Assembly (NCBI GenBank): GCA_965215305.1
Contig: OZ244041.1
Location: 3,836,510-3,900,509 of the forward strand
Length of the DNA: 64,000 bases
Direction: 5' to 3'
From: Alphaproteobacteria bacterium
GTDB taxonomy: Bacteria; Pseudomonadota; Alphaproteobacteria; Bin95
Below the pieces are notes generated by a model that worked only from the letters and a program-made list of their open reading frames with translations, searched no databases and was not told where the DNA came from. The position numbers and the translations under genes were made by a program. This document shows, piece after piece, positions 14,171-43,605 of the stretch (position 1 is the first letter of the stretch; every line of letters begins with the position of its first letter).

Positions 14171-14843
14171 GGCGGTATCCGACGCCCCGAACGGTATGCA
14201 GCAGCGGCCGGTCGAAGCCCCTGTCGATCTTGGCCCGCAGCCGCGAGATCTGGGCGTCGATCACATTGGTGCCCGGGTCGAAGCGGTAATCCCAGACCTG
14301 CTCCAGCAGCATGGTCCGCGTGACGACCCTGCCAGCATGTTCGGCCAGCACTTCCAGCAGGCGGAATTCCTTGGGCTTGAGCGGCAGCGGCACTCCGGCG
14401 CGGTACACGGCGCGCTCCAGGCGGCGGATTTCGAGGTCGCCGATGGTGACATCGGTTTCCGCCGCGACCGGCGCACGCCGCCGGGCGAGCGCCTCCACCC
14501 GCGCGCGCAGTTCTGCAAAGGCGAACGGCTTGACGAGGTAGTCATCTCCACCGGCGTTCAGCCCCTTCACGCGGTCGCCGACGCTGCCGAGCGCGGTGAG
14601 GAACAGCACCGGCGTCATGTCGCCCCCGGCGCGCAGGGTCCGCACGAGGCTTAGCCCGTCCAGCTTCGGCAGCATGCGGTCCACCACCAGCACGTCGAAG
14701 CCGCCGCTCTCGGCCGCAGCGAGCCCGTCCGGGCCGTTTGCAGCGGTCTCGACGCGGTGCCCGTCCTCGCGGAGGCCTCTGGCCGTATAGGCCGCCGTCT
14801 CGCTGTCGTCTTCGATAATGAGGATATCGAGCATGAGCTGCAC
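14157..14843 (-). CDS. OmpR-family response regulator
   Basis: Receiver domain (DILIIEDD...VLVVDRMLPKLDG). Winged-helix DNA-binding domain (LTPKEFRLLEVLAEHAGRVVTRTMLLEQVW). 14-nt overlap with the kinase gene. Confidence 0.85.
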   Translation of the reverse strand: MQLMLDILIIEDDSETAAYTARGLREDGHRVETAANGPDGLAAAESGGFDVLVVDRMLPKLDGLSLVRTLRAGGDMTPVLFLTALGSVGDRVKGLNAGGDDYLVKPFAFAELRARVEALARRRAPVAAETDVTIGDLEIRRLERAVYRAGVPLPLKPKEFRLLEVLAEHAGRVVTRTMLLEQVWDYRFDPGTNVIDAQISRLRAKIDRGFDRPLLHTVRGVGYRLAAD

Positions 14844-14914
14844 TTTAGCATGACGGGGAAAGGGCCGGACGCCCGCCGGCGGGAGGAGGAACCGGCGAGC
14901 GTCCGGGGCGGGGA

Positions 14915-16330
14915 TCAGGCCGTGTCGAGCGGCAAGGCTACGAACCGGTCCCGGTTTTCCCGCCTGAGAAGCATGACGACGACCTCACGGCCGTCGGCTC
15001 TGAGCTCGGCAACGATCTCCTTCGCCTCACCCGGTGTCTCGACCGCACGACGGTCCACCGAAAGGACGACATCGCCCTTGCGCACGCCCTTGCGGGCCGC
15101 CGGGCCGCCGGGCGCCACATCCGCGATGACGACCTTGCCGTCCGCCTGGCCGAGATCGAGGCCGGCGAAACGCCCGGCAGGGGCAGCCGCGTTCACGGGC
15201 CGGCTCTCTGCCGGCATCGCGGCAAGCACCGCTTCGACACGCGCCTCCGCGCCGTCCCGCCAGAGCTTGAGCGCCACGGTTTCGCCCGGGTCGCGTTCGG
15301 CGATCATGCGCGGCAGGCGGCCCGTATCGACGACGCGCCGGTCGTCCACCTCGAGGATGACATCGCCCGCCTTCAGGCCGGCCTTCGCTGCCGGGCCGGA
15401 GGGATCAACCGACGCCACCAGCGCGCCCGCTGGGCCTTCCAGGCCCAACGCGGCCGCCAGGTCGTCGTCGATATGCTGGATGCGGACACCGAGACGCCCG
15501 CGCTCGACCGCGCCATTCGCCTTCAGCTCCGCCACGATGTCGCCCGCCAGCGCCGCCGGCACGGCGAAGCCGATGCCGACATTGCCGCCGTTCGGGGAGA
15601 AGATCGCCGTATTCACGCCGATGACCTCGCCCTGGAGGTTGAAGGTCGGGCCGCCCGAATTGCCTCGGTTGATGGGCGCGGAAATCTGTAGAAAGTCGTC
15701 ATAGGGACCGGCTCCGATCTGGCGTCCGCGCGCCGAAACGATGCCGGCCGTGGCGGAATGGCCGAGGCCGAAGGGATTGCCGAGCGCCACCACCCAGTCG
15801 CCGACCCGGACCTGTTCGGAATCGCCGAACACGACATGTGCGAGCGGCTCATCCGCTTCCACCTTGACGACGGCAAGGTCCGTCTTCGGGTCCACACCGA
15901 CGAGGCGCGCCGGGAGCTTCTGCTTGTCGTGCAAGGTGACAGCGATCTCCTTCGCGCCCGCCACGACATGGTGGTTGGTGACGATATGGCCGTCGGCCGA
16001 GATGACGAAGCCGGAGCCCACGCCCGTGACCGGCCGCCAGTCGCGCCACTTTTCCGGCCAGGGCGCACGGTCGCCGAAGAAGCGACGCATGAATTGCTGC
16101 GGGCCGTCCGGCACCTCGGTCTTCGCGCTTTTTTCGACCCGGATGTTCACAACGGCGGGCGTCACCCGCTCGATGGTTCCGGCCAGACTCGGCAGCGCGG
16201 CGGCGGCGGGCGGCGCGGCGCTCTGGAACGCGCCGACATGCCAGGCGCTGCCGGCCGCGAGCGCGCCGCCAAGCAGGATGGCGGCGAACGCGCGTCGGGC
16301 CGGTCGGCGAACAAACAGTCTGGTCTGCAT
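14915..16330 (-). CDS. Do/DegP/HtrA-family periplasmic serine endoprotease with two PDZ domains
   Basis: Signal peptide. Trypsin-like core (GSGFVISADGHIVTNHHV...GNSGGP). Two PDZ segments. 471 aa. Confidence 0.85.
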   Translation of the reverse strand: MQTRLFVRRPARRAFAAILLGGALAAGSAWHVGAFQSAAPPAAAALPSLAGTIERVTPAVVNIRVEKSAKTEVPDGPQQFMRRFFGDRAPWPEKWRDWRPVTGVGSGFVISADGHIVTNHHVVAGAKEIAVTLHDKQKLPARLVGVDPKTDLAVVKVEADEPLAHVVFGDSEQVRVGDWVVALGNPFGLGHSATAGIVSARGRQIGAGPYDDFLQISAPINRGNSGGPTFNLQGEVIGVNTAIFSPNGGNVGIGFAVPAALAGDIVAELKANGAVERGRLGVRIQHIDDDLAAALGLEGPAGALVASVDPSGPAAKAGLKAGDVILEVDDRRVVDTGRLPRMIAERDPGETVALKLWRDGAEARVEAVLAAMPAESRPVNAAAPAGRFAGLDLGQADGKVVIADVAPGGPAARKGVRKGDVVLSVDRRAVETPGEAKEIVAELRADGREVVVMLLRRENRDRFVALPLDTA

Positions 16331-16416: not shown

Positions 16417-17397
16417 TTACGATCCGGCAAGGAAACGGGTGAGCAGTCCCCGCGCGGCCGCCGCCGGCGCGGCGCGGCCCGCCGCCACCTCCTTCTCAAG
16501 CGTTTCAGCAAGCGCGCTGAGCATGTCATCGCGCCGGAGCGCCTCCAGCGCGCCCTCAGAGATCTCGTTCCACATCCAGGCGGTCGCCTGCCGGGCGCGG
16601 CGTTGTTCGAGGCCCGCCCCCACCGCCTCGCGGAAGGCGCCGACCGCATCCCATACCTCCGGGATGCCGGCACCGGTCAGCGCCGAGCAAGTCTGCACCC
16701 GGACCGTCCAGCCGGGCGCGGAGGGTCGCAGCAGGTGGATCGCCGCTTCATAGTCGGCTGCCGTGCGCCCCGCCTGATCCTCGAGTTCGCCATCCGCCTT
16801 GTTGACCAGCACAAGGTCCGCCAGCTCGACGATGCCGCGCTTGATGCCCTGCAGTTCATCGCCGCCCGCCGGCAGGAGCAGCAGCAGGAACATGTCCACC
16901 ATGTCGGCGACCGCGGTCTCCGACTGGCCGACCCCGACAGTCTCTACCAGCACCACATCGAAGCCGGCGGCCTCGCAAGCCAACATCGCCTCGCGCGTCC
17001 GCCGCGCGACGCCGCCGAGCGTCACCCCGGCCGGCGAGGGGCGGATGAAGGCGGCGCTGTTCCGCGCCAGCGCCTCCATGCGCGTCTTGTCACCCAGGAT
17101 CGAGCCGCCGGAGCGCTTCGAACTCGGATCGACCGCCAGCACCGCGACCCGGTGCCCCGCTTCGATGACATGGCGGCCGAATGCCTCGATGAAGGTGGAT
17201 TTGCCGACCCCCGGCGCGCCGCTGACACCGAGGCGCACGGACCGCCCGGCCTCCGGCAGCAGCACCTCCAGAAGCGCGTCTGCCCGCTCCCGATGGTCAG
17301 GGCGCGAGGATTCGATCAGTGTGATGGCCCGCGCAAGCGCCCGGCGTTCGCCCGCCAGCACTGCCGCCGCGAGGCGGGAAGGATCGGTCTCCTCCAT
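16417..17397 (-). CDS. meaB: Methylmalonyl-CoA mutase-associated GTPase MeaB (ArgK-like)
   Basis: P-loop GVSGAPGVGKST. G-domain LVNKAD. It sits immediately downstream of the mutase gene. Confidence 0.85.
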   Translation of the reverse strand: MEETDPSRLAAAVLAGERRALARAITLIESSRPDHRERADALLEVLLPEAGRSVRLGVSGAPGVGKSTFIEAFGRHVIEAGHRVAVLAVDPSSKRSGGSILGDKTRMEALARNSAAFIRPSPAGVTLGGVARRTREAMLACEAAGFDVVLVETVGVGQSETAVADMVDMFLLLLLPAGGDELQGIKRGIVELADLVLVNKADGELEDQAGRTAADYEAAIHLLRPSAPGWTVRVQTCSALTGAGIPEVWDAVGAFREAVGAGLEQRRARQATAWMWNEISEGALEALRRDDMLSALAETLEKEVAAGRAAPAAAARGLLTRFLAGS

Positions 17398-30653: not shown

Positions 30654-31296
30654 CCGGATCCGCCGCGCGGCTGCGGCGGCGCTGCTGTCCGTTGCGCTCG
30701 CCTCGCCGGCAGCGGCTGACAGGGCTGCGCTCGACGACGGCGACCACGCCGCCATCGCCCGCGCCGAAGCCTATCTCAACGGCCTGACCACGCTACAGGC
30801 GCGGTTCGTGCAGTTGGACGCCTCGGGCGAGGCCGCCACCGGCAGTCTCAAGGTCAAGCGTCCGGGCCGGATGCGCTTCGAATACGACCCGCCGACGCCG
30901 ATCCTGCTGGTGTCGCCCGGAGCGGAACTGATCTATTACGACCGCGACCTGAAAACGGCGACCCGCCTCGCATGGGAGGACACACCGGCCTGGTTCCTGC
31001 TGGCGGACAGGGTGTCGCTGGCGCCGGGCGGTCCGTATCGGGTCGTCGATGTCCATCGCTCGCCGGGCCTGCTCGTCTTTACGGCCGTGGACACCGACTC
31101 GCCCGACGACGGGCGCATCGCCGTCAGTTTCTCCGACCGGCTTGGAATGCTGAAGCTTACGGGATGGGTCGTTGTGGACGCGCTCGGCCAGCCGACCCGG
31201 GTCACGCTTTTCAACATGGCGGCGAACCGGCCGATTGACGACAGGGCCTTTGTTTTCAACGAACCCGTCGGCGCCCTGGAGCGGCAGGAGCCATAA
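30643..31296 (+). CDS. lolA: Outer-membrane lipoprotein carrier protein LolA
   Basis: Signal peptide. LolA fold motifs ([27 protein letters not shown]). 11-nt overlap with the ftsK stop. ftsK-lolA synteny is conserved in proteobacteria. Confidence 0.75.
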
Positions 31297-31369
31297 GCGG
31301 AAGGCGGTTGAAACCGGGCGCGCGGCGGCGAATAATCGGGGAAAGTTGGCCCCGACGGAGTTACCCCGC

Positions 31370-32230
31370 ATGCAGACACTGACCCCCGAACAACGCCGCA
31401 ACTGGAATATCGACGGCTATCTGCTCGTGGAAGGCGCGCTTTCGCCGGACCAGGTGGCGGTATTCTCGGACAAGATTGACGAAATCCGCACGCGCCCGGG
31501 CTACGAGCCCCTTTCGGGCATGCTGCCGCGAGGCCATTACGGCTGGGTCGAGCAATGCGCAGACCAGAATCCGGACGCCTTCATGGACCGGCGCGACCTG
31601 CTCCCCTACGACCGGGCCTTCATTGACCTGATCGACCATGCGCCGGTTTTCGACCTCATTGTCGATATCATGGGCCCGAACCTCGCTTTCAGCATGTCGC
31701 AGGCGATCGTGCGCGCCTCCGGCGACGGGTTCGAAGGCTTCACGCACACCGACGGCGGCGAGGGCCAGCGCGAGGTGCGCGTCACCGAGACGAGCCGTCC
31801 CATCGCGGTCAAGGCGCTTTACCTGCTCACCGACGTCGAAGGGCGCAATTCCGGTAATTTCACCGTGTTCCCCGGCAGCCACATGCGCCCCTTCCCCTGG
31901 GACCGCCAGCCAGCGCTCACGCCGCAATCGCAGGGCGCAGTGCATCTGGAAGGCAAGGCCGGCGACTGTTTCATCTTCTCCCATGCGCTCTGGCACGGAC
32001 CGGCGCCCAACAATTCCGGCCGGGCGCGCAAGACCCTGCTCTACAACTATTCGCAGATGTTCATGCGCGCCTATGACTATAACGGCGCACATGCGCTGAC
32101 CCAGCGCGCCACACCGCGCCAACGCCGCCTGATGGGCGACCTCGGCTACGATTTCCGCCCCGGGTCCTATTTCTATGTGCCGGACGACCAGACGGAGGTC
32201 ATCATGGGCCGGAGCGAGGCCGCCGATTAG
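31370..32230 (+). CDS. Phytanoyl-CoA dioxygenase (PhyH)-family Fe(II)/2OG-dependent oxygenase
   Basis: 286 aa from MQTLTPEQRRNWNIDGYLLVEGAL. HTD...H iron-binding pattern (FTHTDGGEGQ; ALWHGPAPNNS). Confidence 0.7.
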   Translation: MQTLTPEQRRNWNIDGYLLVEGALSPDQVAVFSDKIDEIRTRPGYEPLSGMLPRGHYGWVEQCADQNPDAFMDRRDLLPYDRAFIDLIDHAPVFDLIVDIMGPNLAFSMSQAIVRASGDGFEGFTHTDGGEGQREVRVTETSRPIAVKALYLLTDVEGRNSGNFTVFPGSHMRPFPWDRQPALTPQSQGAVHLEGKAGDCFIFSHALWHGPAPNNSGRARKTLLYNYSQMFMRAYDYNGAHALTQRATPRQRRLMGDLGYDFRPGSYFYVPDDQTEVIMGRSEAAD

Positions 32231-32484: not shown

Positions 32485-33237
32485 TCAGTAGATGCTGAAC
32501 GGGAAATACCGGGCGTTGATCGTCTTGTAGGTGCCGTCGGCGAGGATCGCCTGGATCGCCCGGTTCAGGCGCCGACGCAGCGTCTCGTCCTCCTTGCGCA
32601 CAGCAATGCCGATGCCCTCGTCGAGACGGTACGGCGCGCCCGCATAGCTAAAGTCCGCACCCTCGGCGCTCCCCAGCCACTTCCAGAAGCCGAGCGCGTC
32701 GCCGAACGCCGCGTCCACCCGGCCTTCGATCAGCGCCCGGTCGAGCGCCCCCTGGTCGGTATACAGCCTTATGCCGGCAAATTTCGCCCGGTTGTCCTCC
32801 AGCCAGTCCGAGGCGATGGTCGCGCGCATCGCGCCGACGGTCCGGCCCGCTGTGTCTTCGGGATCGAAACCTGAGCCCTTGCGGGCGACGAAACGAACCC
32901 CGCTGCTGTAATAGCGCTCGGTGAACGCGACCAGCTGGCGGCGCTTCTCGGTGATCGACATGCTGGAGACGATGGCGTCGAACTTCCCGGCTCGCAGCGC
33001 CGGGATCAGCCCCTCCCAGTCCTGGCGGACGAACGCGCACTCGATCTTCATCTGCGCGCAGAGCGCCCGGGCGATGTCGATGTCGAAGCCGGTGAGCCGG
33101 TCGGCATCGGCGACCTCGCTGAAGGGCGGATAGGCCGGATCGACGCCGACGCGGAGTTTCTCCCGAGCCGCCTCGTCCCCGAACACGGGCGCGCCAGTCA
33201 GCAGAACGAGGATCAGCGCCGCGAGCCACTGTCTCAT
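32485..33237 (-). CDS. Periplasmic solute-binding protein family 3 (polar amino-acid type), orphan (no cognate permease/ATPase adjacent)
   Basis: Signal peptide MRQWLAALILVLLTGAPVFG. SBP_bac_3 fold (LRVGVDPAYPPFSE...). 219-nt gap to the upstream GS-like gene. Confidence 0.75.
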   Translation of the reverse strand: MRQWLAALILVLLTGAPVFGDEAAREKLRVGVDPAYPPFSEVADADRLTGFDIDIARALCAQMKIECAFVRQDWEGLIPALRAGKFDAIVSSMSITEKRRQLVAFTERYYSSGVRFVARKGSGFDPEDTAGRTVGAMRATIASDWLEDNRAKFAGIRLYTDQGALDRALIEGRVDAAFGDALGFWKWLGSAEGADFSYAGAPYRLDEGIGIAVRKEDETLRRRLNRAIQAILADGTYKTINARYFPFSIY

Positions 33238-33456
33238 GGCCATCTCCGAAGCCAAGGTGTTCCTAGCGCACCAGCTTACGCCGCCGGCACGGCCAGGGAC
33301 AGCCCCGCCGCCGGTCCCCGTCGGTCAGGGAATGACGACGCGCAAACGGCTGAAACGGACGGTTCTCCTGGGACCGGGTGTTCGATGCCCTGACTCGGCT
33401 ATGACGCGGAAATCTACAAACACCGGTCTGCCTGGGCCACTAATGTCCGGACCGGC

Positions 33457-34908
33457 TCAAAAGGCGGTGAAATATTCCGCCTGCTCCCATTCCGAGACGG
33501 TCATGAGATAGCGGTCCCATTCGGCGCGCTTGAGCCGCACCAGATAGGACACGAAACCGTCCCCGAGAACGGCGCGATACAGCGCCGACGCCTCGAAATG
33601 CTCGATAGCGGCCAGCAGGCTGGCGGGCAGGCATGCGGCGCCCTCGTCATCATAGGGCCGGACAAGGGGCGGCGGCGCGGCCATGCCCGCCTCCACACCG
33701 TCCAGACCGGAGAGGATCTGGAAGGCGAGCGCGAAATAGGGGTTGGCGGTGCTGTCGGGCGCGCGGTTTTCCACCCGGCTTGCCGTCTCGCCCGGCGCCA
33801 TGAGCGCGCGCAGCATGGCGCCGCGATTGTCCTGGGCCCAGCCGATCCGGTTGGGCGCGAGCAGATAGGCCGTATAGCGCTTGTAGCCGTTCACCGTGGG
33901 CGTCGTGGCGATGCAGGAAGCAGCAGCATGGCGCAGCAGTCCCGCGATCCAGCCGCTCGCCGCCGGCGTCAGCGCGCCGTCCGCCGCCGGCATGAACAGG
34001 TTCCGTCCGTCCGCATCCCGAACGGACTGGTGGATATGCCAACCGTTGCTCGCCGCGTTCGCCAGCCTGGGCCGCGCCATGAACGAGGCCAGGAGGCCCT
34101 CGCGGTGGCAGACCTCCTTCGCCATAGTGCGGAAATTGACGGCCATGTCCGCGATCGTCATCGGATCGGCGGGGGCGAAGGTAAACTCGAACTGGCTCGG
34201 CCCCATCTCGATCTCGACGCTGCGCACCGGCATGCCCATGGCCTGCGCGCTGCGGCGGAGCTTGTCGAGCAGCGCTTCGGCCTCGCCGTAGCGGGTCTCC
34301 GTCAGATACTGGTAGCCTTGGTTCAGCGCGCGCGTCGCCGGCGGGCGGGCCGGCATGGTCGTGTCGGCGTGCTCGAGCGCGGGATCGGTGACCTCGAAGA
34401 CCTGGAACTCCACTTCCAGCCCCATCACCGCCTGCATGCCCCGTTCCGACAGCCTGTCGCAGGCTGCGCGCAGAACCCTGCGGGAGGCGAAGGAAACCGG
34501 CGCGCCCGAGGTCAGGGCCGCATCGCAATGGATCAGCGCGGAATGCGCCGACCATGGCAGCCGGCGGAATGTGTCCGGCTGGGGAACGAGCAGGAGGTCG
34601 CCCGCCCCGCGCATCGGCGCATCGCCTGTGTCGGACCAGACGGGAAATACGGTCCGGTGAGACACATCCTTGAGCAGCAGGGTGGAAGGCGCGCGAATGC
34701 CGGAGGCGAAGGCGTCCACCAGCGCCTCGGCGGTGATTGTCTTGCCGCGCAAGATGCCATGCGGGTCGGCAAGGACGACACGGACGGTCTCGATCCCCTC
34801 CGCTTCGACCAGGGCGACCGTCTCCGCCGCGCGGGCGATGTCCTCGCCGGAATACGCCCCGGACCGCGCGAGCGCGCCCGTCCTTATCCTCTCCTCGATG
34901 CCGCTCAT
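33457..34908 (-). CDS. Glutamine-synthetase-family ligase (GS-like; gamma-glutamyl-amine synthetase candidate)
   Basis: 483 aa. GS catalytic-domain motifs are present (NGWHIHQS and the ATP-binding region). Its length and lack of a GSI adenylylation loop fit PuuA/GmaS/TdnQ-type GS-like enzymes. Confidence 0.75.
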   Translation of the reverse strand: MSGIEERIRTGALARSGAYSGEDIARAAETVALVEAEGIETVRVVLADPHGILRGKTITAEALVDAFASGIRAPSTLLLKDVSHRTVFPVWSDTGDAPMRGAGDLLLVPQPDTFRRLPWSAHSALIHCDAALTSGAPVSFASRRVLRAACDRLSERGMQAVMGLEVEFQVFEVTDPALEHADTTMPARPPATRALNQGYQYLTETRYGEAEALLDKLRRSAQAMGMPVRSVEIEMGPSQFEFTFAPADPMTIADMAVNFRTMAKEVCHREGLLASFMARPRLANAASNGWHIHQSVRDADGRNLFMPAADGALTPAASGWIAGLLRHAAASCIATTPTVNGYKRYTAYLLAPNRIGWAQDNRGAMLRALMAPGETASRVENRAPDSTANPYFALAFQILSGLDGVEAGMAAPPPLVRPYDDEGAACLPASLLAAIEHFEASALYRAVLGDGFVSYLVRLKRAEWDRYLMTVSEWEQAEYFTAF

Positions 34909-34914
34909 GCCCGC

Positions 34915-36234
34915 CTACAGGGCCGCATCCCAGGGGCAGGCGGCGCGGCGTTCCCGGTCGGCGCGCAGGCTGGCGGCTTCCCAGTCGGCCGTGTCCGCAA
35001 TCGCATCGTTGGACAAGGGCCCGGTCAGCCCGACCGCATCCGCGCCGTTCAGCATCGGCAGGGCGGTTTCGTCGCCCGCCGCGAGGCCGTCAACCGCCGC
35101 CCGCAACAGCCTGCGATAGCGGATGATGCCGATGTCGGTGCTGCCCAGATGCTCAGCAGTGCGGTCCTGTATCGGGCCCATGCCTTCCACCGCCCACTGG
35201 TCATGCACATTGATGTCGAACCCCATGCCCGTCCAGGTCCGGGCCGCCTGCTCCTCCGGGTTGTATCCGTAGTCGTTGCGCCGGTTCTTCAACGGGGCGT
35301 AGCCGGGCAGGCTGTGCTCCTTCAGCCTTTGCGCGCGCATCGTCTCCCTGTCCACGGGCTTGTCGAAGCTGGTGAACAACGAATACCAGTAGCAGGACTC
35401 GTCATCGACCGGCACATGCCACTGGGTGATCGTCATCTCGCGGCTCATCGGGATGCAGATCGCCTGCGGAAAGATCTGGTTTGTGATGCGCACATGGGTC
35501 AGGCCGCCCGCCATGCGCCTGAGCGCGGTCAGCCTGAGGCCGAATTCGGTTTCCTCGACCCCGATCTCCGGATTTGGATAGTCGCGCAGCAACCGGGTCA
35601 TGGGGATGTTGGAACCGGATGCGGCGCTGTCCCGGAATTGCCTGCCATAGCCGCCTTCCGGGTCCTCGTCCTCCAGGAAGCGGTGCAGGAAGGAGGCATG
35701 CGCCGGGTCGATGCCGATTTCCAGCGCCTGCAGCCAATTGCATTCCCAGAGGCCCTTGAACGCAAACACATGGGTGTCGGGCGCCCGGAAACAGTCGAAA
35801 TTGGCGAATCCCGGCGGTTCGCCCGGACCCAGATAGGCGAAAACGATGCCATTCTTTTCGACGACGGGGTAGGAGACCACCCGTATACGCTCGTGCATCC
35901 GGGAGCCCTCCGGCTCGCCCGGCTGCTCGAGGCATTGGCCGTTGCGGTCGTAGAGCCAGCCGTGGAACGGGCAGCGCAGGCCGTTGTCTTCCCGGCGGCC
36001 GAAACACAGATCCGCGCCGCGATGCGCACAATGCCGGCCGATCAGGCCGAGTTCGCCTTCGTCGTCGCGAAACAGCACGAGCCGCTCGCCCAGAAGCGTC
36101 ACCGGCGCGACAGGGCGCTCGCCGTCCAGCTCCTCCGTCAGCGCCGCCGGCTGCCAGTAACGGCGAAGCAGCTCGCCGGCGGGCATGCCCTTGCCGGTGC
36201 GGGTGAGCCGGTCGTTCAGTTCCTGGCTGATCAT
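34915..36234 (-). CDS. Rieske non-haem iron oxygenase, alpha-subunit-only type (GbcA/CntA/Stc2-like)
   Basis: Rieske CAHRGADLCFGRR...CPFHGW. Mononuclear iron site IDPAHASFLHRF. 439 aa from MISQELNDRL. No beta-subunit gene is present. Confidence 0.8.
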   Translation of the reverse strand: MISQELNDRLTRTGKGMPAGELLRRYWQPAALTEELDGERPVAPVTLLGERLVLFRDDEGELGLIGRHCAHRGADLCFGRREDNGLRCPFHGWLYDRNGQCLEQPGEPEGSRMHERIRVVSYPVVEKNGIVFAYLGPGEPPGFANFDCFRAPDTHVFAFKGLWECNWLQALEIGIDPAHASFLHRFLEDEDPEGGYGRQFRDSAASGSNIPMTRLLRDYPNPEIGVEETEFGLRLTALRRMAGGLTHVRITNQIFPQAICIPMSREMTITQWHVPVDDESCYWYSLFTSFDKPVDRETMRAQRLKEHSLPGYAPLKNRRNDYGYNPEEQAARTWTGMGFDINVHDQWAVEGMGPIQDRTAEHLGSTDIGIIRYRRLLRAAVDGLAAGDETALPMLNGADAVGLTGPLSNDAIADTADWEAASLRADRERRAACPWDAAL

Positions 36235-36256
36235 GGTTCGGCTCCCTTGTGCACAA

Positions 36257-37492
36257 TTACCCGGCGCGTCGGTCCGCCAGCGCCGCCAGACATGCCCCGA
36301 GCGGGATGTTCGCACCCGAAGCGGCGGCCCTGTCGAACCTGCCGGGCTGGCCGACCAGACGGCGCGATGCCATATGGTCGGCGACCGCATTGACGGAGTA
36401 GACGGCGATCAGGCGGTCATGCAGCGTCTCGACCAGGCTGAAGCTGCCGCTTTCAACATCACCGCGGATCGTGAAGACGCTTCCCGCACACGACAGGCCA
36501 GTCATCTGGAGCTTCATGTCGAACTGGTCGCTCCAGAACCACGGCACGGCGTCATAGGCCTCACCCTGCCCCGCGATCTGTCCGGCGACCGCCCGGCCCT
36601 GATCGACAGCGTTCTGCACCGATTCGAGCCGCATCCGGCGGCCGGCGCCCGGCAGCTCGAAGGTTGCACAGTCGCCGATTGCGTAAACATCCGGCAGCGT
36701 GGTTTGCAGCGCCTGGTCCACCAGCAATCCGCCGAGACCGGTTTTTGCGCCCGCCGCCGCGCCCAGGCCGGTCTCGGGCCGGTTGCCGACGCCCAACAGA
36801 ACGAGATCGGCCGCCAGGGTCTCGCCGTTCGAAAGCGCGACCGAAACGATCCGGCCGGCATCGGCGGCGACGCTCCCGACTTGCGCACCGCAATGGATGC
36901 GCACGCCCTCGGCGACATGACGGCGGCGGATATAGTCTGACAGGAACGGGGGCACAGCGCGCTTCAGCAGCCGCTCCTCGGCCTCCACGACATCGACCGT
37001 AAGCCCGAGCTTGCGCGCCGTGGCGGCCACTTCCAGCCCGATGAACCCGCCGCCGATGATGACAAGCCTCGCGCCGGGAACGAGCACCTCCTGCAGCGCC
37101 AACGCATCCTGCATGCTCCGCAGGACGAAAACATTGTCATATCGGAAACCGTCCAGCATGCGCGCGCCGGCTCCGGTGGCGAGCACGGCCTTGTCATAGG
37201 CGAGTCCCCCGTCTTCCAGCCGCAGTGTCTTCGAAGCCGGGTCGAGCGCAACAGCGCGGACGCCGGAGAGAAGTTCGATGTCGTTCCGGTCGAAGAAGTC
37301 CGGGCCCCGAAGCGCGATCTGCTCCGGCCGCTTCTCGCCCGCCAGCATCGCCTTGGAGAGCGGCGGCCGATGATAGGGCGGCCGGTCCTCCTCGCCGACC
37401 AGCCGAATCGGCTCCTCATAGCCCGCCTGGCGCAGCGAGACGGCGGCCTGAACCCCGGCATGCCCCGCGCCGACAATCACGGCCCCGGACAT
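36257..37492 (-). CDS. FAD-dependent ferredoxin--NAD(P)+ reductase (putidaredoxin/rubredoxin-reductase type)
   Basis: FAD motif VIVGAGHAG. NAD motif VIIGGGFIGLE. 411 aa. Confidence 0.8.
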   Translation of the reverse strand: MSGAVIVGAGHAGVQAAVSLRQAGYEEPIRLVGEEDRPPYHRPPLSKAMLAGEKRPEQIALRGPDFFDRNDIELLSGVRAVALDPASKTLRLEDGGLAYDKAVLATGAGARMLDGFRYDNVFVLRSMQDALALQEVLVPGARLVIIGGGFIGLEVAATARKLGLTVDVVEAEERLLKRAVPPFLSDYIRRRHVAEGVRIHCGAQVGSVAADAGRIVSVALSNGETLAADLVLLGVGNRPETGLGAAAGAKTGLGGLLVDQALQTTLPDVYAIGDCATFELPGAGRRMRLESVQNAVDQGRAVAGQIAGQGEAYDAVPWFWSDQFDMKLQMTGLSCAGSVFTIRGDVESGSFSLVETLHDRLIAVYSVNAVADHMASRRLVGQPGRFDRAAASGANIPLGACLAALADRRAG

Positions 37493-37815
37493 CAGACCTG
37501 CACGCGCGGCAGGTCAAACACCGCCCCCTCCAGGGACGGCCCCAGCTCGATCTGGCAGGAAAGCCGGCTGTTCGGGCGCCGTTCGTCCGCCGTGAAGTCC
37601 AGCATGTCCTCTTCATAGGCGTCCTTCGGCGTCCCGGCGGCTTCGGGCGCATAGACATGGCAGGTCGCGCAGGCGCAGGCGCCGCCGCATTCGGCCTCGA
37701 TGCCGGGCACATCGTTCTGGATGGCGGTTTCCATCACGGTGGCGCCCGGCACGCCGCTCACATGGAAGGTCTCTCCGTCGGCCGTCCTGAAAACGATACT
37801 GATCTCATTAGCCAT
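37492..37815 (-). CDS. [2Fe-2S] ferredoxin (adrenodoxin/putidaredoxin type)
   Basis: 107 aa from MANEISIVFRTADGE. Cluster ligands CGGACACATCHV...C. The stop overlaps the reductase ATG (TGATG). Confidence 0.75.
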   Translation of the reverse strand: MANEISIVFRTADGETFHVSGVPGATVMETAIQNDVPGIEAECGGACACATCHVYAPEAAGTPKDAYEEDMLDFTADERRPNSRLSCQIELGPSLEGAVFDLPRVQV

Positions 37816-38022
37816 CGCGACCGGTCCTCGATCCCGGGGTTGTATCATCGTCCATCGCTCGAAACCGATGAGCGCGTGACCGGCTTTCGACAGACACGGC
37901 GCGGCGCAGCCCCTGCGACATGTCAAGGAATGTCATGCTGCGTCATGGTCTTTATGCGCATCACGCATAGCACCTGTCCGTTTCCGGCATATCTATCGGT
38001 CCTCCACCTGCTCCGGACTCGA

Positions 38023-38050
38023 AAAGGCGGCCCCGGAAGAAACCGCCTTT
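38023..38050 (-). terminator. Hairpin AAAGGCGG...CCGCCTTTT, terminator-like on the minus strand downstream of the Ldh2-family gene
   Basis: Read directly as GAAAAGGCGGCCCCGGAAGAAACCGCCTTTG. The T-tract is on the minus-strand 3' side. Confidence 0.35.
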
Positions 38051-38111
38051 GACCCGCGCCCATTCTACCACGGCTTCGCCAGTGTCAAGCGCGCGGGGGC
38101 CGCCGGCTCTC

Positions 38112-39095
38112 CTAACCGGCCACGGCCTGCAGCCGCGCGATAATGGCGTCGTCCGCCTCGAAACCGCCGGACGCACGGGCCGCCTCGCGCACCGCCCGGG
38201 AGCGATCGAAAGGCATGCGGACCGGGCGGGCCGGATCGGCAGGCCTCGCGGTGCGCACGCTTTCGCCGTAGTCCGCAATACGCTGTTTGAAGCCCTCCGC
38301 GTCGCCGAAGATATCCGGGCGGATGGCGACAATGAGCATGCCGAACCCGGCGAGGTCCGGCGTCATGCCCTCCGAGCCCGCCAACACGCCCAGCATCTGC
38401 ACGACAAGGCCGAGCCCGGAGCCCTTGTGCCCGCCCCAGCTTGCAAATGCGCCCGCAAGCGCGGCGTCAGGCTCAACGGTCGGGCGGCCGTCGGGGCCGA
38501 AGGCGCGGCCTTCCGGCAATTGCTGGCCGAGACGCCGGGCGAGCAGCACCTCGGCATGCATGATGGTGCTGGTGCCGATATCCCAGACGATCGGATGGCC
38601 GGTCGAAGGAAAGCCGAAACAGATCGGGTTGGTGCCGAACCGGCCTTCCGCAGCGCCATAGGGTGCAACCCAGGGCGAGGCGTTGGACGCGATCATGGTC
38701 ACGAGGTCGTGCGCCGCCGCCTGCTCGGCGAAGTAGCTCAGCATGCCCGTGTACCAGGTATCGACGGCACCGACGGCAGCGAGGCCGATTGCATTCGCCT
38801 TCTCGATGGCCATTGCAGTCGCGCGCTGGCCGACGACATAGCCGATGTGGTCCGCGCCGTCGATCCGCGCCGACACCGGCGTTTCATGCGTGACGGCGAC
38901 GGGTCGGGTCGGCAGGCCCGTGCGCCGGATCCGCTCGACGATCGACACGGCCCGCGCCAGGCCGCCATAGGAAACGCCGCGCAGTTCGGAGTCGATCAGA
39001 TGGTCGACGATGGCCGGAATGTCATCCGCCCCGTAGCCGAGCTTCGCCATGACCCGCGTCAGCAAGGCATGGGCGTCGTCGATGGCGATCCGCAT
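38112..39095 (-). CDS. Ldh2-family (malate/L-lactate dehydrogenase family 2) NAD(P)H-dependent oxidoreductase
   Basis: 327 aa. Ldh_2 signature region (…GHKGSGLGLVVQMLGVLAG…). Confidence 0.7.
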   Translation of the reverse strand: MRIAIDDAHALLTRVMAKLGYGADDIPAIVDHLIDSELRGVSYGGLARAVSIVERIRRTGLPTRPVAVTHETPVSARIDGADHIGYVVGQRATAMAIEKANAIGLAAVGAVDTWYTGMLSYFAEQAAAHDLVTMIASNASPWVAPYGAAEGRFGTNPICFGFPSTGHPIVWDIGTSTIMHAEVLLARRLGQQLPEGRAFGPDGRPTVEPDAALAGAFASWGGHKGSGLGLVVQMLGVLAGSEGMTPDLAGFGMLIVAIRPDIFGDAEGFKQRIADYGESVRTARPADPARPVRMPFDRSRAVREAARASGGFEADDAIIARLQAVAG

Positions 39096-39371: not shown

Positions 39372-40100
39372 ATGCGACTGGAAGGCAAGACGGTTCTGGT
39401 GACGGCGGCGGGACAGGGCATCGGCCGCGCCATCGCGTTGGCGGCGGCGGCGGAGGGCGCGCGGGTGCTCGCGACCGACATCGCACCCGAGAAGCTCCAG
39501 AACATGAAGGGCAGCATTGAGACACACTGCCTCGACGTGACCAAGGGGACGGAAGTTCAGGCTTTCGCGGAAATGTACGGCCCGGTGGACGCGCTCTGCA
39601 ATGTCGCAGGCTTCGTCCATCACGGCACGATCCTGGAGGCGACGGAAACGGAACTGGACTTCGCCTTCAACCTCAATGTGAAGTCGATGTTCCGCACAAT
39701 CCAAGCCTTCCTGCCTGGCATGATGGCCGCGGGGCAGGGCTCCATCGTCAATATGGCCTCGGTCGCCTCCAACCTGAAAGGCGTGCCGTTCCGCGCAGTC
39801 TATGCCACCACCAAGGCAGCGGTAATCGGGCTGACGCGGGCCGTGGCGGCGGACACCATCTCCTCAGGCGTGCGCTGCAACGCCATTGCGCCCGGCACGG
39901 TGCAATCGCCGTCGCTGGACGAGCGCATCGCCGCCTTCGACGATCCCGTGCAGGCGCGCCGGGATTTCATCGCCCGCCAGCCGCTCGGCCGCCTCGGCAC
40001 GCCGGAAGAAATCGCCGCGCTCGCCGTCCATCTCGCCGCCGACGAAAGCGCTTACACCACCGGTGCCGTCTTCATCGCCGACGGCGGTATCACGCTGTAG
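39372..40100 (+). CDS. Short-chain dehydrogenase/reductase (SDR)
   Basis: TGAAGQGIGRA Rossmann motif, NMAS and YATTK catalytic motifs. 242 aa. The long upstream part of ORF-track frame 38049..40100 is antisense to the Ldh2 gene and was rejected. Confidence 0.8.
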   Translation: MRLEGKTVLVTAAGQGIGRAIALAAAAEGARVLATDIAPEKLQNMKGSIETHCLDVTKGTEVQAFAEMYGPVDALCNVAGFVHHGTILEATETELDFAFNLNVKSMFRTIQAFLPGMMAAGQGSIVNMASVASNLKGVPFRAVYATTKAAVIGLTRAVAADTISSGVRCNAIAPGTVQSPSLDERIAAFDDPVQARRDFIARQPLGRLGTPEEIAALAVHLAADESAYTTGAVFIADGGITL

Positions 40101-40173
40101 GCACGCGCGCCGCGAATGTCGGTGCGAGGCAGCAGCTCCTGCGGGCGTCTGCGGACAGTCCGCCGTGGCGGCG

Positions 40174-41013
40174 CTATCGCGGCCGGCGGCGGCCGCCCGT
40201 GCCGTCGAACAGGATCTGCTCGCGCCGTTCGGCATCGGCGGCGACCCTCTCGAAATCGGCCTCGTCCATCCGGCGGTCGGGCGCCGGCGCGATGGTGAAG
40301 TGCCCGAAGCGGTCCTCGCCAGCCACCAGCGCCACCTCCGTCTCCGGGCCGGAGCGCGCGCGCATGGAAGGCGCGATATAGCGGATGGCCGCGCCGATGC
40401 GCCGGTCGCCGGTGGCGTTCGGCCCGGAGGCATGGAACAGGTGGCCATGGTGGAGCGACGCCTGGCCCGGTTGCAACACGACATCGACCGCGGCGTCCTC
40501 GTCCACCTCGACCTGGATTTCCTGGCCGCGCGTCAGCAGGTTGTCAGCGGCAAAGCTGTCGGCATGCGGCACGATCCGTTCCCGGTGGCTGCCGGGGATG
40601 AAGCGCATGCAGCCGCTCTCTTCCGTCGCCGGCGAAAGCGCCACCCAGAGCGTCGTCTCCTCGGCCTTGTCGAGGCCCCAATAGGTCAGGTCCTGGTGCC
40701 AGGAGACATAGCTCGTCGTGTTCGCTTCCTTGATGAACAGCCCCGACCCCCAGACCATGACATCGGGTCCGAGCACCGCCTCCGCCGCCTCGACCATCTT
40801 CGGATGGCGGACCAGCCGGTCGAAGGACGGCAGGAAACGCGCCGGGAAACCGCGCAGCAGGCCAAGACGTTTCGGGTCGGCGGCAAGCTCCGCTTCGCCC
40901 CGTTCGAGGTCGGCGCGCAGCTCCTCGGCTTCCGCCCGCGTCACGATGTCGAGCGGGAAGACAAAGCCGTCGCGGGCATAGTCGAGGGCGATTTTCGATG
41001 CGGTCATGTTCAT
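40174..41013 (-). CDS. Phytanoyl-CoA dioxygenase (PhyH)-family Fe(II)/2OG oxygenase, second copy
   Basis: 279 aa. WHQDLTYW...D and HHGHLFHASGPN give the HxD...H pattern. Confidence 0.7.
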   Translation of the reverse strand: MNMTASKIALDYARDGFVFPLDIVTRAEAEELRADLERGEAELAADPKRLGLLRGFPARFLPSFDRLVRHPKMVEAAEAVLGPDVMVWGSGLFIKEANTTSYVSWHQDLTYWGLDKAEETTLWVALSPATEESGCMRFIPGSHRERIVPHADSFAADNLLTRGQEIQVEVDEDAAVDVVLQPGQASLHHGHLFHASGPNATGDRRIGAAIRYIAPSMRARSGPETEVALVAGEDRFGHFTIAPAPDRRMDEADFERVAADAERREQILFDGTGGRRRPR

Positions 41014-41067
41014 GGCTTGGCAGTGCGGCCTTGCGGCCGTTCTCCGATGCTGGCGGTTGCGTGCAGC

Positions 41068-41835
41068 CTAGTCCCGGTAGCTCGGGTCGTCCCGGTCGAG
41101 CATGTCGAGATAGGCGGGCCAATCATTGTCCCGGGCGGGCGCGGTCAGGAACTCGTCGAATTGCGCGGCGGTCTTCTCGCAGACGGAAACAGGGGGGGTG
41201 TCGAGCCCGGTCCCGGCCGCATGCGCCGCCGCCATCGCGTCCAGTTGCGAGGCGCAGGCGCGCTCCAGCTCGAACAGCAGCACCCATGTCATCGGGATCG
41301 ACGGGCCGGCGGCAAGCAGGCCGTGGTTCTTCAGCACCAGCGCGCGCCCTTTGGGGCCGATGTCGCGCGCCAGCCGCTCGCGCTCATCCAGCTCCGTCTC
41401 GGCGCTTTCCCAGTCGTGGTAGCCGACGCGCCCGTGAAAGGCCATGGCGGTCTGCGAGATCGGCAGCAGCCCGGCATCCAGCGAAGCGAGCGCCATGCCG
41501 GGCACGGTGTGCGTGTGCGCCGTGCAGGCCACGTCCGGCCGCGCATCGAGCACGGCGGAATGCAGCATGATGCCGACCGCGTTGAGCGGGCTGCCGGTCT
41601 CCAGCGGGTCGGTCCCGTCGCGGTCCGTCTTGACCAGCGAGGAGGCCGTCATTTCCTCGAACATGAGGCCGTAAGGGTTGAGGAGGAAGTGGTCCGGTTC
41701 CCCGGGCACGCGCGCCGCGAAGTGGGTCAGCGCCAGGTCGGAGAGGTCGTGTTTGGCCGCCAGCCGGAAGACGGCCGCCAGATTGACGCGCGCCTCCCAC
41801 TCGGCTTCGGAAACGCGCGATCGGATGTCGGGCAT
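41068..41835 (-). CDS. Class II aldolase/adducin-family protein, paralog A
   Basis: 255 aa. Metal-binding His cluster HSAVLDARPDVACTAHTHTVPGMALA. Confidence 0.75.
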   Translation of the reverse strand: MPDIRSRVSEAEWEARVNLAAVFRLAAKHDLSDLALTHFAARVPGEPDHFLLNPYGLMFEEMTASSLVKTDRDGTDPLETGSPLNAVGIMLHSAVLDARPDVACTAHTHTVPGMALASLDAGLLPISQTAMAFHGRVGYHDWESAETELDERERLARDIGPKGRALVLKNHGLLAAGPSIPMTWVLLFELERACASQLDAMAAAHAAGTGLDTPPVSVCEKTAAQFDEFLTAPARDNDWPAYLDMLDRDDPSYRD

Positions 41836-41853
41836 GGGCTCGGCGCTCCCCGC

Positions 41854-42624
41854 TCAGTGCCTGTAGGACGGATCGGCTTGGTCCAGCAGGCGAAGCTGCG
41901 ATTCCCAGCCGTCATAGGGGTTGAAGCTGCGATTGGCCCGCGGGCGGTCCTCCTGCTCGTCGAGGAAGGCGTCGGAGAGCGTCGCCAGAGGCGCGCCGGT
42001 CGCTTCGGCGAGCATCTGCGTCTTCGCAGCCTTCTCCAGGTCGTAGAGCCGCGCCCAGGCCTCGCGCACGCTGCGCCCGCCCACGAGGAAGCCGTGGTTC
42101 TTCAGCACCATGACATCGGCATCGCCCATATCGGCGATCAGCCGCTCGCGCTCGTCGAGATCGAAGGCGATGCCCTCATAATTGTGATAGGCGATACGCC
42201 CATGGAATTGCATCGCCTTCTGGTTCAACGGCCGCAGGCCCTGCGGCAGCGCCGCCAACGCGATGCCGGTGCGGGTATGCGTGTGCGCGACGCAAGCGAG
42301 GTCCGGCCGCGCCATATGGACGGCCGAGTGGATGGTGAAGCCGGCGGCGTTGACGCCGTAGCGGTTCTCGCCCAGCAGATTGCCCTCAGTATCGACCTTG
42401 ACGAGGTTCGACGCCGTGACCTGATCGAACAGGAGGCCGTAGGGGTTGAGGAGAAAGGCGTCGCCGTCTCCCGGTACGCGCGCGGAGAGATGCGTGTAGG
42501 TGAGGTCGGTCATGCCATGCCGGGCGCAGAGGCGATAGAGCGCGGCGAGATCGACCCGTATCGCCCATTCCTCCGGGCTGACGCGGTCCTGCAAAGAATA
42601 GTCGGCGGTGTGGGAATCAGGCAT
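41854..42624 (-). CDS. Class II aldolase/adducin-family protein, paralog B
   Basis: 256 aa from MPDSHTADYS. HSAVHMARPDLACVAHTHTRTGIALA. It ends 19 nt upstream of paralog A. Confidence 0.75.
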   Translation of the reverse strand: MPDSHTADYSLQDRVSPEEWAIRVDLAALYRLCARHGMTDLTYTHLSARVPGDGDAFLLNPYGLLFDQVTASNLVKVDTEGNLLGENRYGVNAAGFTIHSAVHMARPDLACVAHTHTRTGIALAALPQGLRPLNQKAMQFHGRIAYHNYEGIAFDLDERERLIADMGDADVMVLKNHGFLVGGRSVREAWARLYDLEKAAKTQMLAEATGAPLATLSDAFLDEQEDRPRANRSFNPYDGWESQLRLLDQADPSYRH

Positions 42625-42723
42625 GGCGTAAACTCCTGGGGCCGTCCTTTTAGACGGCCTGCTGTCCGGCGCGCGAATTCCGCTTAGGATAGCCCGAATT
42701 CCGCAAGCGAAGGAACCGCTTCC

Positions 42724-43605
42724 ATGAGCATCGGCTATATCGGCCTCGGCAATATGGGCGGGGCGCTGGCGCGACGCCTCGCGCTCACCCATCCGCTGCG
42801 CGTCTTCGACCTGCGTCCGGAAGCGATGCAGGCGCTGGCGGAGCATAATTGCACCCCTGTCCAGTCCGCCGCGGCGCTGGGCGCGGAATGCGGCACGGTG
42901 CTGACCTGCCTGCCGACCTCGGAGGATGTGCGCCGCGCGGTGTTCGGACCGGGCGGACTTGCCGAAGGCATGGCCCCAGGCAGCATCATCCTCGACCAGA
43001 CGACCGGCGACCCCAATGCGACGCGCGCCATGGCGGCGGAACTCGCGGAGCGCGGCATCCGGCTGATCGACGCGCCGGTCTCGGGCGGCAAGAAGGGCGC
43101 GGACGCCGGCACCATCGCCATCATGGTGGGCGCGGAGGAGGCCGACTACGCCGAAGTGCTGCCGATGCTGCACGCTATCAGCCCCAATGTCTTCCATTGC
43201 GGCGGCACCGGCACGGGCCATGTCATGAAGCTGGTGAACAATGTGACCGCCGCCTCCGCCTATGCGGCTTCCTGCGAAGCGGTCGCCATGGGGGTCAAGA
43301 ACGGGCTCGACTTCGCCACGGCCGTCGAGGTGCTCAACAAGAGCTCGGGCCGAAGCTTCATGTCGGAGGCTATGCTGGCCGCGCAGACGGAGCGCCCGCA
43401 GCCCTTCGATTTCGCATTGGCGCTGATGCACAAGGATGTGCGTCTGGCGACTCAGCTCGGCGCGGACAGCGGTGCGCCCATGTTCGTCGCCAATGTCGTG
43501 CGCGAGCTGCACCAGGCCTCACTCGCCCATCTCGGCCACGAGGCCGATGTGACCGAGTTGTTGCGCACGGTGGAGCGTAATTCGGACGTAAAGGTCATGC
43601 CGTAA
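42724..43605 (+). CDS. NAD(P)-dependent beta-hydroxyacid dehydrogenase (3-hydroxyisobutyrate/tartronate-semialdehyde reductase family)
   Basis: GYIGLGNMGGALARRL Rossmann motif. Catalytic-Lys region (…APVSGGKKGADAGTIAIMVGA…). 293 aa. Confidence 0.8.
   Translation: MSIGYIGLGNMGGALARRLALTHPLRVFDLRPEAMQALAEHNCTPVQSAAALGAECGTVLTCLPTSEDVRRAVFGPGGLAEGMAPGSIILDQTTGDPNATRAMAAELAERGIRLIDAPVSGGKKGADAGTIAIMVGAEEADYAEVLPMLHAISPNVFHCGGTGTGHVMKLVNNVTAASAYAASCEAVAMGVKNGLDFATAVEVLNKSSGRSFMSEAMLAAQTERPQPFDFALALMHKDVRLATQLGADSGAPMFVANVVRELHQASLAHLGHEADVTELLRTVERNSDVKVMP

Follow-up and report, generated by a model that had tools for sequence, protein, structure and literature searches.

We analysed a stretch of 64,000 nt from an alphaproteobacterial genome (contig OZ244041.1, positions 3,836,510 to 3,900,509; ~68% G+C), hereafter the window, in which genes were chosen by a third-position GC filter of open reading frames (ORFs) with one clear gene per locus. 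Its minus strand carries a tightly packed operon (37815-33457) for a ferredoxin (Fdx), a ferredoxin reductase (FdR), a Rieske oxygenase and a protein similar to glutamine synthetase (GS), in the order Fdx-FdR-Rieske-GS. Judging from residue patterns and from the gene neighbourhoods of relatives, this operon probably encodes a gamma-glutamylation-dependent, deaminating ring dioxygenase for an aminobenzoate-type arylamine, among which 4-aminobenzoate is the most likely substrate. The four genes are as follows.

37492-37815, minus strand: [2Fe-2S] ferredoxin of 107 aa, Cys4 adrenodoxin/putidaredoxin type (Pfam Fer2, 3.6e-08; TIGR02007, fdx_isc-like).
36257-37492, minus strand: FAD-dependent ferredoxin-NAD(P)+ reductase of 411 aa with the glutathione-reductase fold (Pyr_redox_2, 9e-68; Reductase_C, 1e-20).
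34915-36234, minus strand: alpha-only Rieske non-haem-iron oxygenase of 439 aa (Rieske and LigXa_C domains), with the true ATG at 36234.
33457-34908, minus strand: GS-like ATP-dependent glutamate-arylamine ligase of 483 aa, a proposed gamma-glutamyl anilide synthetase (Gln-synt_C, 4e-78).

Relatives of the oxygenase, scanned with one genome per species, were found in at least 597 species, many of which belong to the Roseobacter group and other marine Alphaproteobacteria. These groups also appear among the 80 best loci (60-87% identity), which we examined together with their neighbours, beside Hyphomicrobiales, Bradyrhizobium, Granulosicoccaceae, Oceanobacter and Variovorax. The GS-like gene lies directly downstream of the Rieske gene on the same strand in 75 of the 80 loci and is present in 77; in the other five, it is ~4 kb upstream in two, the contig ends in two, and a different gene takes its place in one (L011). 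The pair spans Alpha-, Beta- and Gammaproteobacteria, and this arrangement is far from chance. Adjacency in so many loci suggests that the ligase is functionally coupled to the oxygenase, as had been supposed in an earlier interpretation of this locus from its letters and translated ORFs (the sequence-only reading). That reading named as a check whether five genes are conserved together, including one for a solute-binding protein (SBP) that follows the ligase gene. They are in the case of the Rieske-GS pair but not in that of the SBP: none of the 80 loci has a homologue of it beside the module. No more than about a dozen loci have the ferredoxin and reductase genes next to the module, in variable order, and therefore the conserved core seems to be the Rieske-GS pair. 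A variant architecture was seen in Marinicaulis and Hyphococcus (L068, L077), where the Rieske gene has a divergent GS-like gene 4 kb upstream of it and is co-directional with genes for Amidohydro_3, SnoaL-like, class III aminotransferase and DAO-type oxidoreductase proteins. This variant may act on another substrate.

By its structural matches, the oxygenase is an alpha-only member of the phthalate/isophthalate dioxygenase family. The top match in PDB was isophthalate dioxygenase IPDO (9INA/9IOY; E = 2e-70, 241 bits), followed by RO-CH34 (7FHR) and PDO (7FJL/7V25/7V28) at ~200 bits (about 4e-58 to 5e-58), and by carbazole, dicamba, caffeine and ketosteroid enzymes at 50-70 bits. Identity to IPDO and PDO is 33-37% (IPDO, about 37%), and no gene of the Ring_hydroxyl_B type for a beta subunit was found among the scanned neighbours. 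The sequence-only reading had placed the oxygenase with GbcA, CntA and Stc2. The oxygenase is not an N-demethylase of this type: the phthalate family matched at 200-241 bits, whereas the matches to Stc2 and CntA (23-25 bits) and to the NCBIfam GbcA model (25 bits, cutoff 670) are low and confined to the Rieske domain.

To locate the pocket, the active-site residues of IPDO and PDO (PMC12445078) were mapped onto an alignment of 71 family members. The Rieske ligands C69, H71, C88 and H91, the bridging D176 and the iron ligands H179, H184 and D345 are conserved. R249 is equivalent to IPDO R234 and PDO R244, whose salt bridges anchor the carboxylate (PMC12445078), and it is invariant in 71 of 71 members; I261, which corresponds to the Ile needed for dioxygenation in IPDO and PDO, is also invariant. 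Membership of the phthalate family and retention of the anchoring Arg suggest an aromatic carboxylate as substrate, not a quaternary, secondary or amino-acid-like aliphatic amine. Moreover, the pocket residues G174, P177, A180, F200, M263, Q271 and I341 show practically no variation among members from the Alpha-, Beta- and Gammaproteobacteria, from which we argue that one substrate is shared by all of them. With regard to the position of the amino group, IPDO V178 and I294 were reported to exclude para-substituted substrates (PMC12445078). These positions are Ala180 and a gap in the window oxygenase, which would leave the para position open. In addition, IPDO H257, the second carboxylate ligand that binds the meta carboxylate, is an invariant Gln in this family, and the equivalent of PDO R207 is not conserved.

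The GS-like protein is likewise a candidate for catabolism, namely a gamma-glutamyl-amine ligase and not an assimilatory GS. None of the NCBIfam models reached its cutoff for this protein: the best score was that of type III GS (TIGR03105; 236 bits, cutoff 469.6), followed by GlnA (TIGR00653; 208, cutoff 429), PuuA (204, cutoff 650) and GlnII (19, cutoff 500). In PDB, NpaA1 (8WWU/8WWV/8X6Z) matched at 300 bits, true GS at 172 bits or less and GmaS at 132-148 bits. NpaA1 is a gamma-glutamyl ligase for 1-naphthylamine and aniline and is 90% identical to AtdA1 (PMC11335346). In a neighbour-joining tree, the Rieske-linked GS-like proteins form one clade with NpaA1 as its sister. When residues were placed by alignment with E. 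coli GlnA and their conservation was followed over 60 family members, the metal, ATP and glutamate ligands of GS were all kept: E165, E167, E234, E241, H291, H293, R344, R367, E380 and R382, which correspond to GlnA E129, E131, E212, E220, H269, H271, R321, R344, E357 and R359, are all invariant or near-invariant (H293 in 59 of 60). On the other hand, D50 of the ammonium site is replaced by Pro or Thr in the family (Pro in the window), S53 by Leu and E327 of the flap by Leu, as in NpaA1, and the adenylylated Tyr397 is Asp. The loss of D50, S53 and E327 while the catalytic ligands are kept argues against an assimilatory enzyme. A true glutamine synthetase (GSI, GlnT or GSIII) was rejected on the same residues and on the unmet curated scores, and the earlier view of this protein as a catabolic ligase, which retention of the ammonia-binding residues would have overturned, is upheld.

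The N-domain loop known as the '15th motif' of organic-amine ligases, which is absent from E. coli GlnA, is present in the window protein without a gap relative to NpaA1, in which it forms part of the amine-pocket lining. Its family-specific part, STLLLKDVSHRTVFPVW in the window and S-T-L-L-L-K-D-T-S-H-R-T-V-F-P-V-W as the family consensus, contains K80 (58 of 60 members), H84 (51 of 60) and R/K85 (54 of 60). The amine pocket of NpaA1 is hydrophobic, whereas that of the window ligase is basic (K80, H84, R85): the equivalents of the NpaA1 tunnel residues F75, M81, F86, V201 and W235 are K80, T86, W91, Y201 and M235, respectively. Such a basic pocket would suit an arylamine with an acidic group.

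As for electron transfer, the reductase is of the glutathione-reductase type with FAD and without an Fe-S domain, and its partner, the Cys4 adrenodoxin/putidaredoxin-type [2Fe-2S] ferredoxin, is the likely electron carrier to the oxygenase. This chain, which we take to be class IIA-like in the Batie classification, is not the "class-III-like" one of the sequence-only reading. The NCBIfam models closest to the reductase are HcaD and AndAa, both under cutoff. Homologous pairs of ferredoxin and reductase adjoin the module in L001, L048, L054, L073, L081, L082, L084, L085 and L089; the window reductase is 44-46% identical to those of the L001, L081 and L085 operons, and the ferredoxin is 41% identical to that of the Rieske-GS-Fdx-FdR operon of Polaromonas JS666.

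We propose the following reaction sequence, of which ligation, dioxygenation and collapse are modelled on aniline-dioxygenase chemistry and on the residue patterns. The GS-like ligase would spend ATP to form gamma-glutamyl-4-carboxyanilide, an amide between the aryl amine and the gamma-carboxyl of L-glutamate. NAD(P)H would supply electrons, which the FAD reductase and then the [2Fe-2S] ferredoxin would relay to the Rieske centre of a homo-oligomeric oxygenase and from there to its mononuclear iron. With Arg249 holding the ring carboxylate, O2 would be added in cis at C3 and C4, C4 being the carbon that bears the amide nitrogen; the same meta/para attack geometry is used by IPDO and PDO (PMC12445078). 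The resulting geminal hydroxy-amide would collapse spontaneously to protocatechuate and L-glutamine, and the amine nitrogen would therefore end up directly in glutamine. The occurrence of a glutaminase in Novosphingobium resinovorum SA1 and of gamma-glutamyl hydrolases in some relatives is consistent with this chemistry.

The neighbour genes of relatives point to para-amino aryl acids. Annotated copies on plasmids and chromids are telling in this respect. On p2 of Caballeronia insecticola (L082), the order is GntR, Rieske-GS-Fdx-FdR-Peptidase_C26 (gamma-glutamyl hydrolase family)-LysR-MFS, and the 4-hydroxylaminobenzoate lyase gene PnbB (16809-17363; Pfam 1e-59, formerly DUF4863) and nitroreductase fragments (7046-7734) are found beside the module. 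On pMNOD01 of Methylobacterium nodulans (L084), Rieske-GS is flanked by a divergent Fdx-FdR pair and an IclR gene, and a nitroreductase-PnbB pair (14499-15780) is 3 kb off. PnbB and nitroreductase next to the module suggest that the 4-nitrobenzoate and putative 4-aminobenzoate routes are clustered. Polaromonas sp. JS666 has GntR, then Rieske-GS-Fdx-FdR, a Liv-type ABC transporter and a GATase, and Rieske-GS-Fdx-FdR-Peptidase_C26 is shared by pBPHY01 of P. phymatum and p2 of Caballeronia, both Burkholderiaceae. Gamma-glutamyl hydrolases of the Peptidase_C26/GATase type share an operon with the module in Caballeronia, Polaromonas and L073; such hydrolases are confined to some of the relatives (L073, L081, L082). 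IclR regulators accompany 33 loci and GntR the betaproteobacterial ones, and Liv-type ABC or TRAP transporters of the aromatic-acid type are common nearby.

A further copy belongs to N. resinovorum SA1, which besides Hydrogenophaga intermedia PBC is the other well-studied degrader of sulfanilic acid. There the pair is on pSA3 (L086, record 250488-279257) in a composite catabolic island bounded by two identical ISL3 transposase genes, together with Fdx, FdR, the glutaminase, maleylacetate reductase, an extra folP and bioA/bioD. The window proteins are 58% (Rieske) and 42% (GS-like) identical to these copies. SA1 is the only family member with Rieske A180S, and its ligase loop has H84N and T86N; these substitutions would fit if a carboxylate substrate had recently been exchanged for a sulfonate. 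In two other loci, a gene for arylamine N-acetyltransferase (PF00797, 4e-54) is directly 3' of the module (L022, 12883-13695; L056, 12783-13595), and in L011 one (11375-12205) stands in place of the GS-like gene, suggesting that N-acetylation may replace gamma-glutamylation there. Separately, a gene of the CHMI/tautomerase superfamily (113-119 aa) is directly 3' of the GS-like gene in L026, L048, L061, L083 and L085; its product may help in rearomatisation or tautomerisation of the dioxygenation product.

Several points weigh against 4-aminobenzoate as substrate or against the proposed route in general. No genes for protocatechuate breakdown, a transporter or a regulator lie within 15 kb of the operon in the window. 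Box (benzoyl-CoA) genes, and not pca genes, surround the module in 10-14 of the 80 loci (L055, L059, L062-L064, L066, L067, L070, L071, L074, L075; also L010, L028 and L040). The neighbours there, in gamma- and alphaproteobacterial lineages, are benzoate-CoA ligase, boxA/B/C, BoxR, an alpha/beta hydrolase and a Liv-type ABC transporter, and in L055 and L071 box and module form one co-directional array. A protocatechuate-forming function does not explain this linkage beyond shared uptake or regulation for aromatic acids. In the ligase, Tyr179 of the GS ammonium site is kept, and identity is only 34% to NpaA1 and 42% to the SA1 copy. The orthology to SadA (WP_009515254.1) and SadB (WP_009515256.1) of the sad operon (see below) is presumed from gene content and the SA1 island, not from direct alignment, and no named Hydrogenophaga protein was among the best 120 matches obtained from the Variovorax orthologue. 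Finally, the 'pab' cluster of Paraburkholderia terrae KU-15 (Iwaki laboratory) reportedly converts 4-aminobenzoate via gamma-glutamyl-4-carboxyanilide to protocatechuate, its enzymes being a multicomponent dioxygenase, a gamma-glutamyl hydrolase and a ligase of the GS-like kind, but our literature search for a gamma-glutamyl pathway of 4-aminobenzoate in KU-15 found only the genome announcement of this strain.

Among other explanations, the same mechanism may serve a different arylamine, such as 3-aminobenzoate, anthranilate, an aminosalicylate/aminohydroxybenzoate or sulfanilate, though we consider this unlikely. By analogy with isophthalate, a meta substituent would be beside the attacked carbon, so that gamma-glutamyl-3-aminobenzoate could also fit the isophthalate-like pocket and also yield protocatechuate, another point against the para isomer. 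Moreover, the sad system, which has been studied by experiment, acts on a sulfonate instead of a carboxylate, and the box and benzoate-CoA ligase genes hint at other aromatic acids. On the other hand, the PnbB and nitroreductase neighbours and the sulfanilate island of SA1 indicate para geometry, for which Ala180 and the missing I294 equivalent would leave room. Sulfanilate in particular is a xenobiotic, yet the family is spread over mostly marine species, and the changes unique to SA1 suggest adaptation away from an ancestral substrate. We therefore prefer 4-aminobenzoate.

It is very unlikely that the module has a biosynthetic or detoxifying role, in which a toxic arylamine would be tagged by the ligase, or turned into some metabolite through N- or C-hydroxylation by the oxygenase, without feeding central metabolism. 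The detoxifying arylamine N-acetyltransferase linked in three loci and the lack of downstream ring-cleavage genes in the window would agree with such a role, but the neighbours elsewhere are catabolic (IclR/GntR regulators, uptake transporters, pnb, box, maleylacetate reductase), no biosynthetic genes recur, and the characterised relative supports growth on the amine. The model of the sequence-only reading, that an aliphatic or amino-acid-like amine is taken up through the SBP and, after gamma-glutamylation, N-demethylated or hydroxylated by a GbcA/CntA/Stc2-type enzyme as in the Ipu and GmaS pathways, is highly improbable. The gene order and tight coupling are compatible with it, and the isopropylamine pathway, as cited in PMC11335346, hydroxylates a gamma-glutamyl alkylamide. 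Against it stand the poor matches to those oxygenases, the conserved carboxylate anchor in an aromatic-type pocket, a ligase nearest to an arylamine ligase instead of GmaS or PuuA, the aromatic or arylamine contexts of the relatives and an SBP that is nowhere co-conserved. Least probable of all is a chance neighbourhood of an ordinary phthalate/isophthalate-type dioxygenase and an assimilatory GlnT/GSIII-like GS: the top NCBIfam score of type III GS and the similarity to IPDO would allow it, but that score is far under the cutoff, the ammonium-site residues are lost, the pair is adjacent in three proteobacterial classes, the IPDO H257 position is an invariant Gln, and relatives' operons include gamma-glutamyl hydrolases.

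Two further features flank the dioxygenase operon.

32485-33255, minus strand: family-3 periplasmic SBP of the Lys/Arg/Orn type (SBP_bac_3, 4e-41).
37816-38111, minus strand: 296-nt intergenic region 5' of the ferredoxin gene, presumed promoter region by its position only.

All five ORFs have coding-type third-position GC (GC3 = 0.82-0.88). Their strand and order, and the overlap and gaps between them, are as given by the sequence-only reading: the ferredoxin stop and the reductase start share 1 nt (TGATG), the reductase-Rieske gap is 22 nt and holds the ribosome-binding site AAGGGAG, the Rieske/GS-like gap is 6 nt, and the GS-like gene is separated from the SBP gene by 219 nt if the latter starts at its third in-frame ATG, or by 201 nt with a TTG start. 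In agreement with the same reading, Pfam scans of the neighbours found no gene near the operon for a beta subunit, a glutamine-amidotransferase (GAT)-like hydrolase or a regulator. Nothing beyond chance was found when the operon flanks were scanned for promoters, terminators and inverted repeats, with no match to the sigma-70 consensus, and no Rfam family reached its gathering score in the whole window, including the region upstream of thrS-infC-rplT. The site is flanked by ftsK-lolA and thrS-infC-rplT-pheST, which places the operon in the core chromosome.

The SBP, from which an amino-acid-like amine had been suspected, is adjacent but probably not part of the system. The three closest relatives (L001, L089, L090; 87-89% identity) share the chromosomal site, with Fdx-FdR-Rieske-GS followed directly by PhyH, lolA and ftsK, and in all of them both the SBP gene and the Ldh_2 gene (38112-39095) are missing. 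These two genes appear to be strain-specific insertions. The absence of the SBP from these relatives and from all the loci examined speaks against its membership; it was rejected as the uptake component for want of co-conservation, and there is no cognate permease or ATPase nearby. Ldh_2, PhyH, SDR and class II aldolase were also rejected as pathway members, since they do not accompany the module consistently; of these genes, the SDR and one PhyH alone are retained in the syntenic relatives, where they belong to the chromosomal surroundings. A separate accessory cluster at 39372-43605 consists of the SDR gene (plus strand), a PhyH dioxygenase gene (40174-41013), two tandem class II aldolase/adducin paralogues (41068-41835 and 41854-42624) and a 3-hydroxyisobutyrate-dehydrogenase-like gene (42724-43605), and a second PhyH gene is at ~31172-32230.

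In public records, both proteins of the pair have generic names, 'aromatic ring-hydroxylating dioxygenase subunit alpha' and 'glutamine synthetase family protein'. With such names and no NCBIfam model at its cutoff, the GS-like gene is liable to be counted as a gene for nitrogen assimilation, a misreading that recognition of the pair as an arylamine-deaminating module would correct. It also suggests that marine Alphaproteobacteria commonly degrade 4-aminobenzoate, which is a folate precursor and a traded B-vitamin precursor. As a wider suggestion, which we consider possible and no more than tentative, the module may represent an unrecognised and very widespread catabolism of 4-aminobenzoate or natural arylamines in marine and soil Proteobacteria, with nitrogen passing straight into glutamine; the degraders of sulfanilate and 4-nitrobenzoate would then be recent recruits, and the embedding among box genes would reflect an unknown link to benzoyl-CoA. 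The gain is in annotation and ecology, and it is neither a new kind of biochemistry nor a new route for aliphatic or amino-acid-like amines.

Compared with known systems, GbcA, CntA and Stc2 are, like the window enzyme, alpha-only Rieske oxygenases acting on nitrogen compounds, but they differ in the catalytic domain and lack a GS-like partner, and the likeness is confined to the Rieske domain. IPDO and PDO of Comamonas testosteroni KF1 share with it the fold family, the Rieske and iron ligands, the bridging Asp, the anchoring Arg and the Ile, and the expected attack is likewise on the meta and para carbons relative to the carboxylate that is anchored. They differ in their one-component reductase, in the absence of a GS-like partner, in the low identity and in the second carboxylate ligand, which is changed in the window enzyme. 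The KU-15 pab cluster, as reportedly described, includes a hydrolase, whereas the window has no hydrolase gene and its host is of a marine alphaproteobacterial lineage.

With the GoaS group (AtdA1, NpaA1, PuuA, Ipu), the window ligase shares the catalytic core, the lack of D50, S53 and E327 and the 15th-motif loop. In the aniline and 1-naphthylamine systems, the arylamine is made into its gamma-glutamyl amide by a GS-like ligase and then into a catechol by a Rieske dioxygenase (PMC11335346). AtdA1-A5, TdnQTA1A2B and NpaA1-A5 thus resemble the window operon in combining ligase and dioxygenase, and NpaA1 is the nearest solved relative of the ligase. The general logic of the sequence-only reading, that the amine is first gamma-glutamylated and then oxygenated as by aniline dioxygenase, is supported. 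In the aniline-type systems, the oxygenase is of the benzene/toluene type with alpha and beta subunits, the reductase is a single component and a GAT-like hydrolase is obligatory, whereas the window has an alpha-only oxygenase of the phthalate family, separate ferredoxin and reductase and no hydrolase. Membership of the classical aniline dioxygenases (AtdA1-A5/TdnQTA1A2B) was rejected, as there is no beta subunit, GATase or Peptidase_C26 in the window.

The closest precedent is the sad operon of Hydrogenophaga intermedia PBC. SadB, its GS-like protein, is reportedly needed for activity of the oxygenase. The genes listed for sad in PMC5632844 are sadA (4-aminobenzenesulfonate 3,4-dioxygenase), sadB, a ferredoxin and a reductase, with no beta subunit named; the paper describes growth on the amine and cites the deamination of 4-aminobenzenesulfonate to 4-sulfocatechol (Gan, Shahir, Yahya 2012, Microbiology 158:1933). 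According to the same paper, the operon is conserved in all Hydrogenophaga genomes, including non-degraders, from which the authors proposed a close structural analogue as the natural substrate. The present locus offers a testable natural substrate for this long-puzzling conservation in non-degraders of sulfanilate. The candidate of the sequence-only reading thus has a precedent, as the same four genes are those of the published operon, with the GS-like gene next to the oxygenase gene. The Comamonadaceae loci L078, L080 and L081 even have GntR followed by Rieske-GS-Fdx(-FdR), an order matching sad, whereas the order in the window is Fdx-FdR-Rieske-GS. Deaminating 3,4-dioxygenation of a para-amino aryl acid, as proposed here, would be common to both, though the substrate in the window is presumably a carboxylate instead of a sulfonate and the product protocatechuate instead of 4-sulfocatechol. 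A single-alpha oxygenase, an adjacent GS-like gene and separate ferredoxin and reductase genes are all found in the window, and the operon is likely a marine alphaproteobacterial form of the SadABCD-type GS-dependent deaminating dioxygenase, related to aniline dioxygenase.

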